A stretch of 62,843 nucleotides of DNA from an uncultured Gammaproteobacteria bacterium (GCA_964625535.1 CAZVEX010000006.1:1-62843), one strand, 5' to 3'. Counted from the stretch's first letter, positions 5,081 through 55,044 are shown. The notes: generated from the sequence alone by a model not told the origin. A program made the numbers and translations.

Positions 5081-7317
5081 TTACCTCTATCTTCATAATC
5101 TTTGAATAAATTAAAACTGGCTGAAGCAGGAGACATTAAACAAATTTTTCCTTTGTCTGTATTTTTAAAAGCTAATTTTACTGCTACTTCCATTGAGTGT
5201 GCATTAAAAAATTTAATATCCTTTTTTACCGACTTCCTTATTTTTTCTCCTGTATCCGGAAACAGAATTAATGTTTTTATTTTTGACTTTGCAATTGCCG
5301 GTCCTAAAACCGAATAGTCCACCCCACGATCAAATCCTCCTGCTATTAAAGTTTGTACATCTTCCCCCAAAATCTTTAGACCATAAATAGTGGCATGGGG
5401 ATTAGTAGCCAGCGAGTCATTGTAGAATTTTATACCCTTAACTTCTCCAACATATTCCAATCTGTGAGGAAGGGGTTTGAAATTATCAATGGCTTTATTA
5501 ATTTTTTCTTCCGGAATTTTAAATAATCTTCCTATTGCTCTTGCAGCCTCAACAGAACTTTTGTTTTGAATAAGAAAATCTTTTTCAGTTTGATATTTAT
5601 AGATATTTACCTTGGCATTTTTATAATTTTCAAAACTGCCATGGTAGTCTAAGTGATCCGGGTAAAGATTTGTGATAACAGCCATATGAGGACTGGAGTT
5701 TAAATCATTAAGCTGAAAAGAAGACATTTCATAAACAATAATAGAATTTGCATTAATTTTTTCCAATAAATCAAGCGAGGGTTTACCAATGTTTCCAGTC
5801 AGATAAACATCCAATCTTCCTTTCTTTAAAACTTCATAAATCATCGCAGCTGTGGTACTCTTGCCCTTAGTGCCTGTTACCCCAATTATTTTTCCTTGGC
5901 AAATATCAAAGAAAATTTGGGTGGCAGAAGTAATTATTTTCCCTTTCTGCTTTGCTATTTTAATTTCCGGGAGATAGGGGATACCGGGAGATTTAATGAT
6001 GATATCAAAATTATTTATTTTATCCAAGTAACTTTCTCCATCTTTTGCATCGGCAGTTGCAAAATCTATATTATTTTTTTTCAAAAAATCCCGGGTTACT
6101 TGCCCTTCTCTGCCCATTCCCAAAATTAATATAGATATCTGATCTTTGTATCTTTCTAGAAGTTTTTTCCTTTTACCTTGTAAAATACCGAGCACCATTG
6201 CATATTCAATTTCCTCCTTTGTCCCCACACATTCAAAGGGTTTAAATTTTCCCGGCAGTTGTAAAAGTTCTTCCATCAAAGGAGCAAGTCTTTCATCATC
6301 CAGCAAATCCTTACCAAAAATTTCTTTAATTTTATCCCCCAAAAACGGATAAAGCATTAAATAGGTAAATAAACACTTTGAACACACTCCACACCAAACT
6401 CCTGACTTTGAACCTCTATTGCAGCTTCTAAAAAATTTGTGATATTTTTCCATCCGGGAAAACACTCTGGAAATTTGCAGTTCATTTAAACTTCTTAAAA
6501 AACTAAAATAATTTGTATTATTAGCCAAATATTTTTTGGCATATTCCTTAAAATCTTTTTCAAATTCAAAGCTTTTGGAATATTGATGATTTATTATCTG
6601 CCCATGATATTCCACATTACCTTCATCAGAAGAGGCCTCATTAGAAACAACAATATTTTTATAATCATATAAAACTGCAGCTAGGGTAGATAAAAAAGCC
6701 AAATATGCTGAAAATGGAGTATGACCATTTAAGTAACCTTTTTTGTTTAATTCCAAAAGTTTAGGGTCTATTATTCTTTTGATAATTATGCCGTCTTTGG
6801 CAATTTTTTTGGAAGCTTCAGTGGGATTTAACATTAAGGGGGTACCCTTTAAGGTTTCCAAGGTTACAATCGAATCTTTACCACCGCTAACTAAAATTAA
6901 ATCTCTGTTTTTTAACTGACCATTAAATGGGGGATATTGAATGTCGGAATCAATCACAAATTTCACTAAATTATTTTTGGTAAAATCAATTTTATTTTTG
7001 TAAAAAAATTCTCCCAGACCTTTTATTAAAAGATCTTTCCAAAACTTAATCTGCTCTTTGTCCAAATATCCTGCCTTAATAACAATTTCAGGTGAGCAGG
7101 TGGCTTTCCAATAACTTAACAGTTCCACCATCCCCAGATTGAAAATTAAGTTATGTGGAATAAACTTGGTCGCAGGAAAAATAATTTCCGGTTTAAATTT
7201 AATATCAGGACTTATTGAAAAATCAAAAGTGATCTTAAGATTTTCTCCATCTTTGGATATATCAAATCCCTCATAAATAAATTGAGGGTGTTTAGCCCTA
7301 AGCTCCTTAAAATTCAT
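5050..7317 (-). CDS. murL-murD: Fused MurL (UDP-MurNAc-L-Ala-L-Glu epimerase) and MurD/MurD2 ligase
   Basis: N-half: SGGKDS, NGHTPFSA, SNE.S..EGN, INHQYSKS, SCN..WCG.C.KC. C-half: ILGMGREG, SPGIP, GVTGTKGKSTT, EMSSFQL, DHLDYH, NDSLATN, SPASASF. ATG at 7317 preferred over TTG at 7326. Confidence 0.85.
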   Translation of the reverse strand: MNFKELRAKHPQFIYEGFDISKDGENLKITFDFSISPDIKFKPEIIFPATKFIPHNLIFNLGMVELLSYWKATCSPEIVIKAGYLDKEQIKFWKDLLIKGLGEFFYKNKIDFTKNNLVKFVIDSDIQYPPFNGQLKNRDLILVSGGKDSIVTLETLKGTPLMLNPTEASKKIAKDGIIIKRIIDPKLLELNKKGYLNGHTPFSAYLAFLSTLAAVLYDYKNIVVSNEASSDEGNVEYHGQIINHQYSKSFEFEKDFKEYAKKYLANNTNYFSFLRSLNELQISRVFSRMEKYHKFFRSCNRGSKSGVWCGVCSKCLFTYLMLYPFLGDKIKEIFGKDLLDDERLAPLMEELLQLPGKFKPFECVGTKEEIEYAMVLGILQGKRKKLLERYKDQISILILGMGREGQVTRDFLKKNNIDFATADAKDGESYLDKINNFDIIIKSPGIPYLPEIKIAKQKGKIITSATQIFFDICQGKIIGVTGTKGKSTTAAMIYEVLKKGRLDVYLTGNIGKPSLDLLEKINANSIIVYEMSSFQLNDLNSSPHMAVITNLYPDHLDYHGSFENYKNAKVNIYKYQTEKDFLIQNKSSVEAARAIGRLFKIPEEKINKAIDNFKPLPHRLEYVGEVKGIKFYNDSLATNPHATIYGLKILGEDVQTLIAGGFDRGVDYSVLGPAIAKSKIKTLILFPDTGEKIRKSVKKDIKFFNAHSMEVAVKLAFKNTDKGKICLMSPASASFNLFKDYEDRGNQFKKLVLAS

Positions 7318-45514: not shown

Positions 45515-45598
45515 GCCAAGGTGCTGGAATGGTATACAGGGTAGTCTCAAAAACTACTGGTCCAAAAGGCCGTGAGGGTTCGACTCCCTCCCTTGGCA
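45515..45598 (+). tRNA. tRNA-Leu (anticodon CAA)
   Basis: Acceptor GCCAAGG/CCTTGGC, anticodon arm GTAGT-CTCAAAA-ACTAC, long variable arm, GGTTCGACTCC, A73; CCA not encoded directly after A73. Confidence 0.96.
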
Positions 45599-45629
45599 CT
45601 CCATACTCCAAATTTGTTATAATTTCACC

Positions 45630-51071: not shown

Positions 51072-51099
51072 TTGACAAGTTGACAATTTGTGGTATAAT
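51072..51099 (+). promoter_or_regulatory. Consensus sigma70 promoter of the T-box operon
   Basis: TTGACA-N16-TATAAT with extended TG. Confidence 0.85.
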
Positions 51100-51105
51100 G
51101 TATTT

Positions 51106-51345
51106 ACAATTAAATAACCAAAGGCATTATCAGTGGAGTCACGATCCACGAGCCGAGGGTCAAAATACCCTACAGAAGTTAAACTGTAAAATGTAACAGA
51201 CGATGTCGCCTAGCGGAGTCGCCACTAAGAGGTCCGATAAGAAATTATCGAGACAAACAGGATGGGACCGCGGGAGGTCCTTTTTTAATGCCTCTCGTTC
51301 CTTGAATTTCACTTCATGTGGAGTTCAAAGAACGGGAGGTTTTTT
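51106..51345 (+). promoter_or_regulatory. T-box riboswitch, probably His-specific, transcription-attenuation type
   Basis: Stem I GGC..GTGGA-GTCACGA-TCCAC-GAGCC; Stem II AGGGT/ACCCT; IIA/B pseudoknot ACAG-AAGTTAAA-CTGT with GTTA/TAAC; Stem III CGATAA-GAAA-TTATCG; T-box AGGATGGGACCGCG; antiterminator AGGA/TCCT plus GCGGGAGG/CCTCTCGT. Confidence 0.85.
51291..51345 (+). terminator. Intrinsic terminator of the T-box leader
   Basis: CCTCTCGTTC..TTGAATTTCAC-TTCAT-GTGGAGTTCAA..GAACGGGAGG followed by T6. Confidence 0.9.
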
Positions 51346-51352
51346 AATAGTT

Positions 51353-52006
51353 ATGAAAACAAAGAAATTTTTAATTGCTAAAGGAAACTCCACCCTGCTT
51401 GTCTGGGATTGTCCTGAATGGAAAAAATCTCAGATTATTAAAAAGTACTTAGGAGATGTGGAACAAATTGGTTTCATTGAAGACTTCAATGGAATAAGTT
51501 CTCTTAAAATGATGGGCGGAGAACTTTGTATTAATGCCACAATTGCCTTGGCATCACAATTAGGTGCTAATGGAAAGTTAAAAACTAGTGGCCTTAATCA
51601 GGAAATTGAATTTAAGAACAAAAATAAATTTACGTATTTAAAATTCTCTCTACCATTTACTAGAGAAGGAAATATTGTTCTCTTTCCCGGTATAGGTTTT
51701 ATTTGTTCTAGTAGACTAATCTATGGTGCCAAGAAAGAATTATCTTCACTGGCTAAAAAATATTCTCTACCAGCCTTTGGATTAGTTTCTTATCAGAATA
51801 ATAAAATCACTCCCTATGTTTATGTCAGAAATACTAACTCTTTAGTTGAAGAAACCGCCTGTGGATCTGGCTCAATTGCTTACTCCATTGTCACAGGTTA
51901 CTCCAAAGTAATTCACCCAACTGGGCAGTCAGTTCTGGTGCGCCAAAGAGGCGATATCTTTATTGTAGGAGCTAAAGTTGTTAAGATAGAAGAAAACTAT
52001 GATTAA
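51353..52006 (+). CDS. DapF-fold amino-acid racemase/epimerase (CntK histidine racemase-like)
   Basis: GNSTLLV, EQIGFI, MMGGELCINA, ETACGSGS (two catalytic Cys); true start is the ATG at 51353. Confidence 0.75.
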   Translation: MKTKKFLIAKGNSTLLVWDCPEWKKSQIIKKYLGDVEQIGFIEDFNGISSLKMMGGELCINATIALASQLGANGKLKTSGLNQEIEFKNKNKFTYLKFSLPFTREGNIVLFPGIGFICSSRLIYGAKKELSSLAKKYSLPAFGLVSYQNNKITPYVYVRNTNSLVEETACGSGSIAYSIVTGYSKVIHPTGQSVLVRQRGDIFIVGAKVVKIEENYD

Positions 52007-52886
52007 AGCACCGCCGACACCAAAAGGGTTTAGAGATATCAAGCCGGAACTGGCCAAAAAACGCCGCGAGGTAATTTCAAAAATTGCTGATGTTTTAGAA
52101 CAAGAAGGCTTTGTCCCTATTGAAACCCCTACTATTGAATTTGCAGATACACTCAAGGGAAAATACGGAGAAGAAGAAAAATTGATTTATGAGTTTACGG
52201 ATAGGGGCGATAGAAAACTGGCTCTGCGCTATGATTTGACAGTTCCTTTGGCTCGATATGTGGCCACCTACAATCCTCCCCTGCCATTTCGCCGCTATCA
52301 AATTGGCCAGGTTTTTCGCGGGGAAAATCCTCAAAAAGGCAGATTTCGTGAATTTACCCAGTTTGATTTTGATTCTGTGGGATCCAATGATCCAAAAGAG
52401 GATGCTTTGATCATTGCTGCAGCAATCAAATCTTTGGAAGTTTTGGGGGTTAAAAATTTTAAGATCTTAATTAATGACAGAAATATTTTTGCCGGCCTGC
52501 CTCCTTCGATTATTCGAATAATTGACAAAATCAAAAAAATTGGTCGCGATGAAGTGGTTAATGAATTGATTAAAGCAGGTTATTCGGAAAAGGAGTTGCA
52601 AACTATTGAATCTAACGAACCAACGGAAAATTTACAAAATATATTTCAGGAACTTGAGAATTTGGGTATTTCAAAAGATAAATATCAATTCTCACCTACT
52701 CTGGCTAGAGGTTTGGATTATTATACCGGCATAATCTTAGAAGCAGAAATTGAAGAATATGGTGGAGGCTCTGTTGGAGGCGGAGGCAGATATGATAATT
52801 TAATAGGCATGTTTTCTAAAAAACAAGCTCCTGCTGTTGGATTTTCTTTTGGTCTTGATCGTCTACTGGAAATCCTCTATCCTTAA
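51999..52886 (+). CDS. hisS: Histidine--tRNA ligase lacking the anticodon-binding domain
   Basis: KGFRD, LRYDLTVPLARY, FRGENPQKGRFREFTQ, LARGLDYYTG, GGGRYD, GFSFGLDRL; stops right after motif 3. Confidence 0.88.
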   Translation: MIKAPPTPKGFRDIKPELAKKRREVISKIADVLEQEGFVPIETPTIEFADTLKGKYGEEEKLIYEFTDRGDRKLALRYDLTVPLARYVATYNPPLPFRRYQIGQVFRGENPQKGRFREFTQFDFDSVGSNDPKEDALIIAAAIKSLEVLGVKNFKILINDRNIFAGLPPSIIRIIDKIKKIGRDEVVNELIKAGYSEKELQTIESNEPTENLQNIFQELENLGISKDKYQFSPTLARGLDYYTGIILEAEIEEYGGGSVGGGGRYDNLIGMFSKKQAPAVGFSFGLDRLLEILYP

Positions 52887-52891
52887 TATAG

Positions 52892-53830
52892 ATGACTTCT
52901 GCCATTTTTACCAAGCCCTGGCCATATTTGGCACTAATACTTGCCCATATGATTTGGGGGGGTAATTTTGTGGTGGCTAAGGTAACTCTGCAGGAGTTTC
53001 CTGTCTACTCTCTGGCATTTTTAAGATTCGCCCTGGCTTCCCTGTTTTTAGCTCCATTTTTTTTAACTAATACAAAAAAGGTTAAGATTCACAAAAAAGA
53101 TATCCCAAAATTAACTTTAATCGGGGTTTTGATGATCACCTTAAACATTGCTTTTTTCTTTACCGGCATACAAAAAACCACTGCCATTAATGCCTCTGTT
53201 TTAACCTTAATTATTCCCATGTTATCGGTCCTCCTGGGCTGGTGGTTTTTAAAAGAAAAAGTCTATTTAATTAATCTGGCCGGCATCTTTGCCGGGCTTA
53301 TGGGAGCGTTAATTATTATTGGTGTGCCCAGAGCCCTTTTCGGGGATGTGTCTATTCAATCTTTAACCGGCAACTTTTTGATTATTCTGGCGTCCGTAGT
53401 TTGGGTCGCAGGAGCAATTATCTCCCGTCAAATGTTGCAAAAATATTCCTCCCTGACAGTGGTGGCCTTTGCATTCCTTATCGGGATGATCACTTTTTTC
53501 CCTCTGGCCGCTTTTGAATATCTGGAAAATCCTGGCTGGACTACTAGAGTGAGCCTGCTGGGAATTCTGGGACTTTTGTACATGACCATGCTATCATCGG
53601 TATCTGCCTATTTTCTTTTTGAATGGGGACTGGCCAAAACTTCCGTGATGATCGCGGATTTATTTCAATACATTGAGCCATTTGTAGCTACGACTTTGGC
53701 AGTCTTAATTTTATCCGAAAGCTTGTCGGTTGATTTTGGCATAGGAGCAGTGTTAATAGCTGCGGGGGTCTATCTTGGTACTTTTGCCAAAGAAGCCCAC
53801 CATAGACATCACAAGGCACATAGGATATAA
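52892..53830 (+). CDS. EamA/DMT-family transporter
   Basis: [16 protein letters not shown], ten transmembrane segments in two repeats, YIEPFVA..VLILSE; His-rich tail. Confidence 0.9.
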
Positions 53831-54165: not shown

Positions 54166-55044
54166 ATGGATTATTTAAAGCAACAAATTGATCAGATAAA
54201 TAAGCGGATTGCAGATATCAAACCATTGCTCGAAGATCCCGAGATGGCCCAGCTGGCAAGCGAGGAAATTGCCCAGTTGGAAAGACAAAAGGAAGAATTG
54301 ACGCCCAAGGTTGCAGTTGCGGAAAACGGCAGTCTGAAGACGGATAGCTGTATTCTTGAGATAAGAAGTGCTGCCGGCGGGGATGAAGCGGGAATTTTTG
54401 CCGGGGATCTCCTTAGAATGTACACAAAATTTACTCAAAATCAGGAATGGAAAGTAGAAGTACTTGATAAGTTTGTACTCAAAATTTCAGGAAAAGATTG
54501 TTATAATATGTTAAAGCATGAATCTGGTGTTCATCGAGTACAAAGAGTACCTGTTACGGAAAGTTCAGGCAGAATTCACACTTCCACGGCCACAGTGGCG
54601 GTTTTACCGGAAGTCACTTCCAGGGAAGTTTCCATTAACCCCGCCGATTTGACTTTTGAAGCTTTCAGATCTGGGGGCCACGGAGGCCAAAATGTCAATA
54701 AAGTTTCAACAGCCGTCAGACTTAAACATATCCCAACGGGAATTGTGGTAACGACCCAAACAGAACGTTTTCAGGCACAAAATAGAGAAATTGCCATGGA
54801 TCTTCTTCGCTCCAGGATTTGGCAGATGGAAGAAGAAAAAAGACAAAAAGAGATAGCGGGAAATAGAGCTTCGCAGGTTGGGATGGGAGAGAGATCGGAA
54901 AAAATCAGAACTTACAATTTCCCTCAAAACAGAGTGACCGACCACCGCCTTAACAAATCATGGCATAATTTGGAAGAAATCATGGACGGAAATCTGGAAC
55001 CGATTATTCTTACTCTGCAGGCAGCTCTCCCAATGTCGCATTGA
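54166..55044 (+). CDS. prfA: Peptide chain release factor 1 (short form)
   Basis: LEIRSAAGGDEA, HRVQRVPVTES (PxT motif), GGQNVNK, RTYNFPQNRVTDHR. Confidence 0.92.
   Translation: MDYLKQQIDQINKRIADIKPLLEDPEMAQLASEEIAQLERQKEELTPKVAVAENGSLKTDSCILEIRSAAGGDEAGIFAGDLLRMYTKFTQNQEWKVEVLDKFVLKISGKDCYNMLKHESGVHRVQRVPVTESSGRIHTSTATVAVLPEVTSREVSINPADLTFEAFRSGGHGGQNVNKVSTAVRLKHIPTGIVVTTQTERFQAQNREIAMDLLRSRIWQMEEEKRQKEIAGNRASQVGMGERSEKIRTYNFPQNRVTDHRLNKSWHNLEEIMDGNLEPIILTLQAALPMSH

Follow-up and report, generated by a model that had tools for sequence, protein, structure and literature searches.

A gene at positions 51353 to 52006 (plus strand) of a 62,843-nucleotide (nt) stretch of DNA from an uncultured Gammaproteobacteria bacterium (GCA_964625535.1 CAZVEX010000006.1:1-62843; the whole stretch is hereafter referred to as the window) encodes a short, two-cysteine relative of the histidine racemases CntK and HisR. 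The gene stands first in its operon, 3' of a leader which we read as a histidine-specific T-box riboswitch, and overlaps the start of hisS, which encodes histidyl-tRNA synthetase (HisRS). The best reading of this arrangement, and one we hold to be probable without considering it secure, is that of a T-box-induced racemase which supplies HisRS with L-histidine made from D-histidine.

In the mechanism we propose, a consensus promoter would drive transcription into a leader of ~245 nt acting as a histidine T-box. Uncharged tRNA-His would pair with this leader at two points, its GUG anticodon with the CAC of the Stem I loop and its 3'-CCCA with the bulge UGGG; the pairing would stabilise an antiterminator and block a terminator that hides the ribosome-binding site. 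One message would then yield both the two-Cys racemase and a minimal HisRS by translational coupling. As the charging of tRNA-His falls, the racemase would turn D-histidine, either free or from peptides containing D-amino acids, into L-histidine for immediate use by HisRS, and this conversion would also cut the level of a non-chargeable analogue. The D-to-L flux, and the dependence of the organism on external histidine, we infer.

The racemase and its relatives

The open reading frame (ORF) at 51353-52006 specifies 217 amino acids (aa), and the motifs MMGGELCINA and EETACGSG in its translation contain the two cysteines, Cys59 and Cys170. The longest possible ORF opens at 51203. However, the N-termini of homologues all fall at MKxKKFLIAGGNST in the family alignment, and positions 51203-51352 form a structured RNA leader; the start is placed at 51353 for these reasons. 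A preliminary description of this DNA, made from the sequence alone, had recognised a two-Cys racemase fold in the motifs GGELCINA and ETACGSG; both the ORF and its start stand as given there.

Amongst NCBIfam models, the only matches of note were those for HisR (NF052224, E=3e-12) and CntK (NF033599, E=4e-10), at 46.9 and 39.8 bits against equivalog cut-offs of 400 and 300 bits, respectively. Scores so far below the cut-offs indicate a distinct, shorter subfamily. The Pfam match on record in precomputed tables is PF26317 (CntK_N); in our local Pfam copy, which holds no model for it, the racemase matched none of the families, DAP_epimerase included. Searched singly against the Protein Data Bank (PDB) with phmmer, the sequence recovered HisR (9CR1/9CR6) and CntK (6L4L/6JIS) and no diaminopimelate epimerase (DapF). 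A profile of 29 family members, searched against the whole PDB, returned HisR (E=5e-20) and CntK (E=5e-17) alone, with DapF absent among the matches at E<=1, and identity as DapF was rejected on this basis. The AlphaFold2 model built from the family alignment (predicted local distance difference test score, pLDDT, 96.3; predicted template modelling score, pTM, 0.92) adopts a DapF-like two-domain fold, for which Foldseek ranked HisR first (9cr6/9cr1, E=7e-18), CntK second (6jis), and PhzF, O-ureidoserine racemase and DapF later. The DapF fold shared with CntK, on which the preliminary description had drawn, is upheld by these results, with HisR and CntK leading in sequence, profile and structure comparisons and DapF excluded. 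In a representative library, the racemase family accounts for 1443 clusters at E<=1e-10.

The active site proposed for HisR can be followed into the window protein. In HisR, N18, E49, E65, N69, E206 and S211 are proposed to bind histidine, with C67 and C209 as the catalytic pair (PMC11602996). The cysteines, represented in the PDB by C67S and C209S crystal forms, align to C59 and C170, while the proposed binding residues align to N12, E37, E57, N61, E167 and S172, all of them unchanged or almost so among the 29 members. Judged by these alignments, the racemase is a short, distinct branch of the CntK/HisR histidine-racemase clade and not a DapF, and most likely interconverts D- and L-histidine; we infer histidine to be the substrate of the window enzyme itself.

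Characterisation of cofactor-independent histidine racemases has, to our knowledge, been limited to two enzymes, and we know of no established physiological role for HisR. The HisR of Fusobacterium nucleatum (PDB 9CR1/9CR6; PMC11602996) is the best match in sequence, profile and structure and shares with the window protein the motifs MMGGE(F/L)C.N and E..C(A/G)SG as well as the proposed His-binding Asn and Glu residues. The two are, however, ~21% identical and differ in length (~260-270 aa versus 217 aa), and HisR has an orphan context whereas the window racemase appears to be T-box-controlled and hisS-coupled. The sequence network constructed for HisR admitted proteins of 250 aa or more (PMC11602996), by which the short branch would be left out. 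CntK of Staphylococcus aureus (PDB 6JIS) shares the fold and the two-Cys chemistry of the window protein, and its CntK_N family matches the window product, with ~18% identity between the proteins. Whereas CntK supplies D-histidine for staphylopine, the window gene is adjoined by no cntL/cntM, exporter or importer genes and its regulation points to the supply of L-histidine. No cntL/cntM-type genes were present among the immediate neighbours, to which this check was confined, in keeping with the earlier remark that a metallophore role lacks support here. DapF resembles the window protein in its pseudo-symmetric two-domain fold and in having a Cys at the N-terminus of each of two helices (PMC12039745), but gives no profile-level match, has Ala at the side-chain-facing position where the histidine racemases and the window protein have Glu, and occurs in another context.

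The histidine T-box leader

A sigma-70-type promoter (51072-51099, plus strand as are all features of the leader; TTGACA-16 nt-TATAAT with a TG extension, 12/12 consensus, predicted start ~51106) precedes the leader, and its TTGACA and TATAAT elements are also conserved in homologous leaders. The leader proper (51118-51346) comprises a short Stem I, Stem II with IIA/B, two Stem III-like hairpins, an antiterminator and a terminator. Its specifier hairpin (51133-51149) consists of a 5-bp stem, GUGGA/UCCAC, and a 7-nt loop, GUCACGA, in which the histidine codon CAC occupies 51140-51142. The T-box sequence AGGAUGGGACCGCG (51259-51272), with the 7-nt bulge UGGGACC at 51263-51269, forms the 5' part of the antiterminator (51259-51302). 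Within the latter, helix A1 pairs 51259-51262 with 51299-51302 and helix A2 pairs 51270-51277 with 51291-51298, including a basal G270-U298 wobble. The 3' strand of the antiterminator doubles as the 5' arm of an intrinsic terminator (51291-51345) which reads CCUCUCGUUC...GAACGGGAGG over 51291-51339, then U6, and whose 3' arm carries the GGGAGG Shine-Dalgarno (SD) sequence of the racemase gene. With a U-run terminator that holds the SD sequence in its 3' arm, the T-box looks transcriptional and is possibly dual. A smaller hairpin at 51264-51281 (GGACC-GCGGGA-GGUCC, with U6) is a terminator-like match that overlaps the T-box bulge, and is possibly a first, upstream terminator or a trap for the off state. 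A compensatory variant of this hairpin, GACCGC/GCGGUC, was seen in loci L011 and L205.

Support for the leader comes from comparison across relatives. We assembled 80 loci from GTDB species genomes encoding a relative of the racemase, with gene calls that are simple ORF picks; the record titles of many of the metagenome-assembled genomes (MAGs) are unreliable as taxonomy. A hidden Markov model of 8 homologous leaders located the element in 11 racemase loci besides the window (nhmmer, E=4e-67), as well as in L081 and L205, and the identical 14-mer AGGAUGGGACCGCG is present in 10 leaders and, among the GTDB loci, precedes the racemase in nine. On the leader alignment, RNAalifold found compensatory change in 27/62 pairs. 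With the antiterminator written into the structure by hand, 94% of cells were paired and 16/38 pairs were doubly changed, against 1-6 in slid alignments, and 0/500 shuffles reached the observed values. In the 8 leaders, helices A1 and A2 were paired in 100% and 97% of cells and the basal G-U was kept in 8/8. The specifier loop is invariant while its stem covaries (the closing pair is GC, CG or UA), Stem II and two more hairpins covary strongly, and the inner stem of the terminator is conserved with covariation, with the ATG 1-2 nt past the U-run in relatives. The loop GUCACGN was present in 123/131 of the T-box-core sites with enough upstream sequence, among the matches listed.

The pairing rule between bulge and NCCA, and the role of the basal wobble, are established for T-boxes (PMC7583486). 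The bulge UGGG predicts a discriminator C73 on tRNA-His, and the tRNA-His genes of five related operons, all with GUG, an encoded G-1 and C73, match this prediction.

At its gathering threshold, Rfam found no T-box in the leader. A permissive search with RF00230 aligned 51118-51305 at 25.5 bits, against a gathering score of 93 (E=0.001 in 551 nt); the low score arises because 7 nt stand where the model has a long Stem I of 76 positions. Stem I being a 5-bp hairpin only, the distal platform for tRNA elbow stacking is absent, as it is from the short-Stem-I class. Taken with the covariation, the invariant CAC and the 11 other racemase loci, the earlier claim that the gene lies directly under a histidine T-box is sustained. 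On comparative evidence the leader is a real His-specific T-box of the short-Stem-I class, predicted to bind tRNA-His and to allow read-through.

This leader may be set beside the actinobacterial ileS-type T-boxes with short Stem I (PMC7583486), with which it shares the short Stem I specifier, Stem II and IIA/B, as well as a canonical discriminator, a 7-nt bulge and the basal G-U wobble. Unlike the ileS type, the window T-box places CAC in a 7-nt terminal loop, and its terminator is intrinsic, with a U-run and an SD sequence in the 3' arm. Its class also differs in occurring in Patescibacteria-type MAGs, in sometimes governing a tRNA-His gene and in scoring below the Rfam gathering threshold.

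Association with hisS and the wider T-box regulon

The TAA stop codon of the racemase (52004-52006) lies beyond the ATG of hisS (51999), and through the resulting 8-nt overlap (AACTATGATTAA) the racemase is, by its sequence arrangement, translationally coupled to hisS. The preliminary description had likewise seen an overlap with the hisS start, and by its profile score the second gene is hisS. This ORF (51999-52886, plus strand; 295 aa) reaches 294 bits with TIGR00442, against a threshold of 286.75 (profile positions 2-312 of 406), while the hisZ model yields 186 bits, below its cut-off of 272. The HisRS motifs FRGENPQKGRFREF, RGLDYY, GGGRYD and GFSFGLDR (motifs 2, 3 and His-binding) are intact in translation. 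The protein ends after motif 3 and comprises the catalytic domain only; the C-terminal anticodon-binding domain is absent, and none is encoded elsewhere in the window. The 120 best homologues (254-350 aa, nearly all 286-316 aa) equally have no such domain, and the closest of them are named Daviesbacteria, Curtissbacteria and Microgenomates. We read the 295-aa ORF, from these comparisons, as a real minimal HisRS of the window lineage. Orthologues at the same position in L008, L022 and L024 measure 396-417 aa, and those of other relatives 396-421 aa. Some of the short homologues carry the label HisZ or 'ATP phosphoribosyltransferase regulatory subunit' in their source records.

Across the 80 loci, hisS lies near the racemase in 36, and in ~25 it follows the racemase immediately and in the same orientation. 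Racemase and a full-length HisRS share one reading frame of 645 aa in L032 (1816-3753) and L035, and a protein of the representative library (P0248, 642 aa) fuses the racemase to a full HisRS, anticodon-binding domain included. Chance adjacency of the two genes was discarded as an explanation in view of this recurrence. Co-occurrence with hisS and T-boxes, which the preliminary description had put forward as a check, speaks for a conserved link, given the 36/80 loci, the fusions and the shared T-box. A strict T-box pattern had no match 5' of the racemases of L032, L035, L036, L038-L041, L051 and L078, where a T-box may be absent or divergent.

Degraded racemase genes lie between T-box and hisS in L048 (~6001-6207) and L044 (1852-2043, a C-terminal fragment). 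Further degraded copies so placed include that of L021, which has lost its N-terminus, the split copy of L098, and truncated or fragmentary ones in L120 and L140. Such copies suggest repeated loss of the gene and fit an accessory, dispensable function. In other loci additional genes intervene between T-box and racemase (L008 5436-5951, 171 aa, SLOG-cluster4-like; L043 5435-5878, L045 and L192, 147-166 aa, matching no family). Pfam and NCBIfam gave no match for the 467-aa (c8), 529-aa (c15) and 147-aa (k15) neighbours, and the 171-aa ORF of L008 clusters with SLOG only.

To gauge the wider regulon, metagenome contigs were searched for exact copies of an 18-mer from the T-box core, which at least 120 stretches contained; cargo was counted at the 72 T-box sites followed by 2.5 kb or more of sequence, among the matches listed. 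At these sites the operon contains hisG at least 31 times, hisS at least 29 times, the racemase at least 21 times, and racemase with hisS at least 12 times. A hisGDCBH-type biosynthesis operon occurs at about 10 sites at the least, the order hisG-hisE-racemase-GNAT at no fewer than 6 (two variants counted in) and M15-racemase-GNAT at no fewer than 3. Since hisG/hisE or hisGDCBH stand under related T-boxes, carriers are not uniformly auxotrophs. The T-box class also governs GNAT and SLOG genes and, at some sites in the place of the racemase, genes for M15 D-Ala-D-Ala-dipeptidase-like proteins, hydrolases of the M20 and AstE/AspA types and aminotransferase-like proteins. By these counts, the compact His T-box class is abundant in groundwater-type metagenomes, with at least 123 sites.

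Several individual arrangements deserve mention. The racemase is fused to an M15 peptidase in P0334, P0345 and P0360, and to GNAT (P0239), HAD (P0247/L027 5428-6624) and HisE PRA-PH (P0025/L205 1533-2435) domains in others. In L205 (646-3128), the T-box is followed by a short-form hisG (202 aa), the HisE-racemase fusion and hisS, which raises the question of whether HisRS may double there as HisZ. In a sister genome (GCA_016183225.1; L081 402-4882), the T-box precedes two long aminotransferase-like genes of PF00155 (products of 557 and 492 aa), which take the place of the racemase, and then a hisS for a product of 293 aa. The HisRS of this genome and that of the window share 86% identity. Lastly, a tRNA-His gene follows straight after the T-box terminator, ahead of the protein-coding genes, in L011 (5913-5987), L125 (6526-6597), L142 (4173-4244), L166 (4335-4409) and L187 (5318-5389). 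A riboswitch so placed would govern the production of the tRNA that it senses.

Direction of the reaction and competing explanations

T-boxes switch on when their cognate tRNA is uncharged (PMC7583486), and both HisR and CntK racemise histidine (PMC11602996). Because the T-box would be on at uncharged tRNA-His, a state in which making D-histidine from scarce L-histidine would serve little purpose, the D-to-L direction is favoured. The M15 D-Ala-D-Ala-dipeptidase-like genes, present in the regulon and fused to the racemase, provide independent support that D-configured substrates matter. The preliminary description had proposed a salvage of D-histidine towards L-histidine; its direction is backed by the T-box logic and by the M15 genes and fusions, while the salvage itself keeps the standing of a proposal. 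His auxotrophs of Salmonella use D-histidine through D-amino-acid dehydrogenase and transamination. There, D-histidine meets the histidine requirement once turned to L-histidine; however, the route runs through oxidative deamination and re-amination, and is not known to involve a racemase, a T-box or a link to hisS.

A number of observations weigh against the supply of L-histidine to HisRS. The distance of the racemase from the equivalog cut-offs means that its substrate specificity could differ. The reaction is reversible and its direction is not fixed by anything in the sequence, and D-histidine is not known to be abundant among the amino acids of the environment. For many close homologues there is no hisS in the vicinity, and in some T-box operons (L088, L094, L097, L139, L191, L205) the racemase comes after hisG-hisE, with other his genes not in view. 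An ATP-grasp ligase of the cyanophycin-synthetase/GshB type adjoins the racemase in L025, L028 and L046 and is fused to it in L072 (5884-7857); such a neighbour fits D-amino-acid production. The racemase family has more than one context, the window copy standing in that of T-box and hisS. Finally, the first catalytic Cys is Ser in 14/73 family members (L002, L008, L019-L022, L032, L035, L041-L043, L045, L051, L078), and the Ser forms are directly upstream of hisS far more often than the Cys forms (11/14 versus 10/59; Fisher p=2e-5, not corrected for phylogeny). Replacement of Cys by Ser hinders catalysis in HisR (PMC11602996).

These Ser forms bear most closely on an alternative which we judge unlikely, namely that the protein in the hisS context is mainly a His-binding partner of HisRS, acting in substrate delivery or gating, or as a chiral filter or regulator. 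The 11 hisS-adjacent Ser copies appear to have several origins, with five different Ser codons in use and the Ser variants scattered on a neighbour-joining tree that is a sketch. Two Ser-Ser pairs show a ratio of non-synonymous to synonymous substitution (dN/dS) of 0.13, similar to that of Cys forms and indicative of purifying selection; this value rules the Ser variants out as pseudogenes and implies that they are functional. All three racemase-HisRS fusions found (L032, L035, P0248) are Ser forms. The window copy, however, has both cysteines and the entire active site, and in the Ser forms the second Cys is preserved together with every binding residue. Of the two DapF cysteines, the N-terminal one is turned towards the L-centre and the C-terminal one towards the D-centre (PMC12039745). 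A hydroxyl/Cys pair can catalyse: EcL-DER, the YgeA of E. coli, is cited in PMC12661438 as having an unbalanced Thr/Cys pair with quasi-unidirectional catalysis, and offers a precedent for enantiomer-biased racemisation. EcL-DER differs in having the Asp/Glu racemase family fold, and the window protein is itself Cys/Cys. By this analogy alone, the Ser forms could be D-to-L-biased enzymes, or else His-binding modules of HisRS.

Catalysis in the opposite direction, with D-histidine made for an envelope component, a peptide or another product as CntK makes it for staphylopine, strikes us as quite unlikely in the window. Both characterised relatives, CntK and HisR, are thought to supply D-histidine, and the ATP-grasp ligases described above, together with GNAT genes behind the racemase or fused to it, would suit such a role. 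Against this, no ligase, cntL or cntM adjoins the window gene, and the predicted induction at uncharged tRNA-His, in the window and 11 other loci, and the coupling to HisRS would make a drain on L-histidine counter-productive. The T-box logic lowers the case for a producer of D-histidine in the T-box/hisS context, but not for the ligase-linked homologues.

That the protein is no racemase but a step of histidine biosynthesis, for instance a non-orthologous replacement of HisI, is very improbable. At least 7 sites under the T-box associate it with the pathway (4 hisG-hisE-racemase-GNAT, two variants, and L205), and the HisE-racemase fusion (P0025/L205) is flanked by short hisG and hisS. Yet its catalytic and substrate-binding residues match those of proven histidine racemases, most copies, that of the window included, have no his gene nearby, and no racemase occurs among the first five genes of the hisGDCBH operons under the T-box. 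Hardly credible at all is an ordinary DapF, or other DapF-fold enzyme, beside hisS by chance: the DapF-like fold and the depositors' label 'diaminopimelate epimerase' on CntK PDB entries would allow it, but there is no Pfam DAP_epimerase match, the family profile finds no PDB DapF at E<=1, the Glu residues characteristic of His racemases have been kept, and adjacency to hisS recurs with fusions and a shared T-box.

We return to a T-box-induced supply of L-histidine and its possible extension. Possible, rather than probable, is a 'histidine supply' regulon of Patescibacteria under T-box control, in which the racemase, as a separate protein or joined to HisRS, HisE or a D-specific M15 dipeptidase, would feed D-histidine taken from D-amino-acid peptides into the charging of tRNA-His, while the Ser/Cys variants would keep the D-facing Cys as D-to-L-biased enzymes or as chiral gatekeepers on HisRS. 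If true, this regulon would give a histidine racemase its first physiological role in translation, and would constitute a new kind of module associated with aminoacyl-tRNA synthetases.

Our literature searches returned no paper on a link between racemase and hisS, and the papers found on D-histidine and HisRS make no such link in their titles or abstracts. Nor was a paper found on T-boxes in bacteria of the candidate phyla radiation (CPR) or Patescibacteria type; neither negative is proof of absence. The window gene is a short subfamily of a known kind of enzyme in a regulatory and operonic setting that we did not find described. It represents a large, unstudied racemase branch tied to the charging of tRNA-His through the His T-box, coupling to hisS, tRNA-His genes in the operons and fusions to HisRS, and a testable role for this branch would be to make L-histidine from D-histidine available to HisRS. 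The compact His T-box class of CPR-type genomes and the widespread HisRS without an anticodon-binding domain were likewise not found described in the literature searched. The same is true of the natural Ser/Cys variants, which could show how racemases become direction-biased.

The immediate neighbours of the racemase encode an NTP_transferase, a 153-aa ORF without assignment, HisRS, EamA, L31 and RF1. Downstream of hisS, and also on the plus strand, eamA (52892-53830; EamA by Pfam, of the DMT family), rpmE, the gene for L31 (53839-54165), and prfA (54166-55044; 292-aa product) lie 5, 8 and 0 nt, respectively, behind the gene that precedes each, and are possibly on the racemase-hisS transcript; the order hisS-EamA-L31-prfA is kept in relatives. 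With tblastn, no his or salvage genes were found in the 62.8-kb window, which is a small part of a genome. A tRNA-Leu(CAA) gene at 45515-45599, ~6 kb upstream, is syntenic in L022 and L024.

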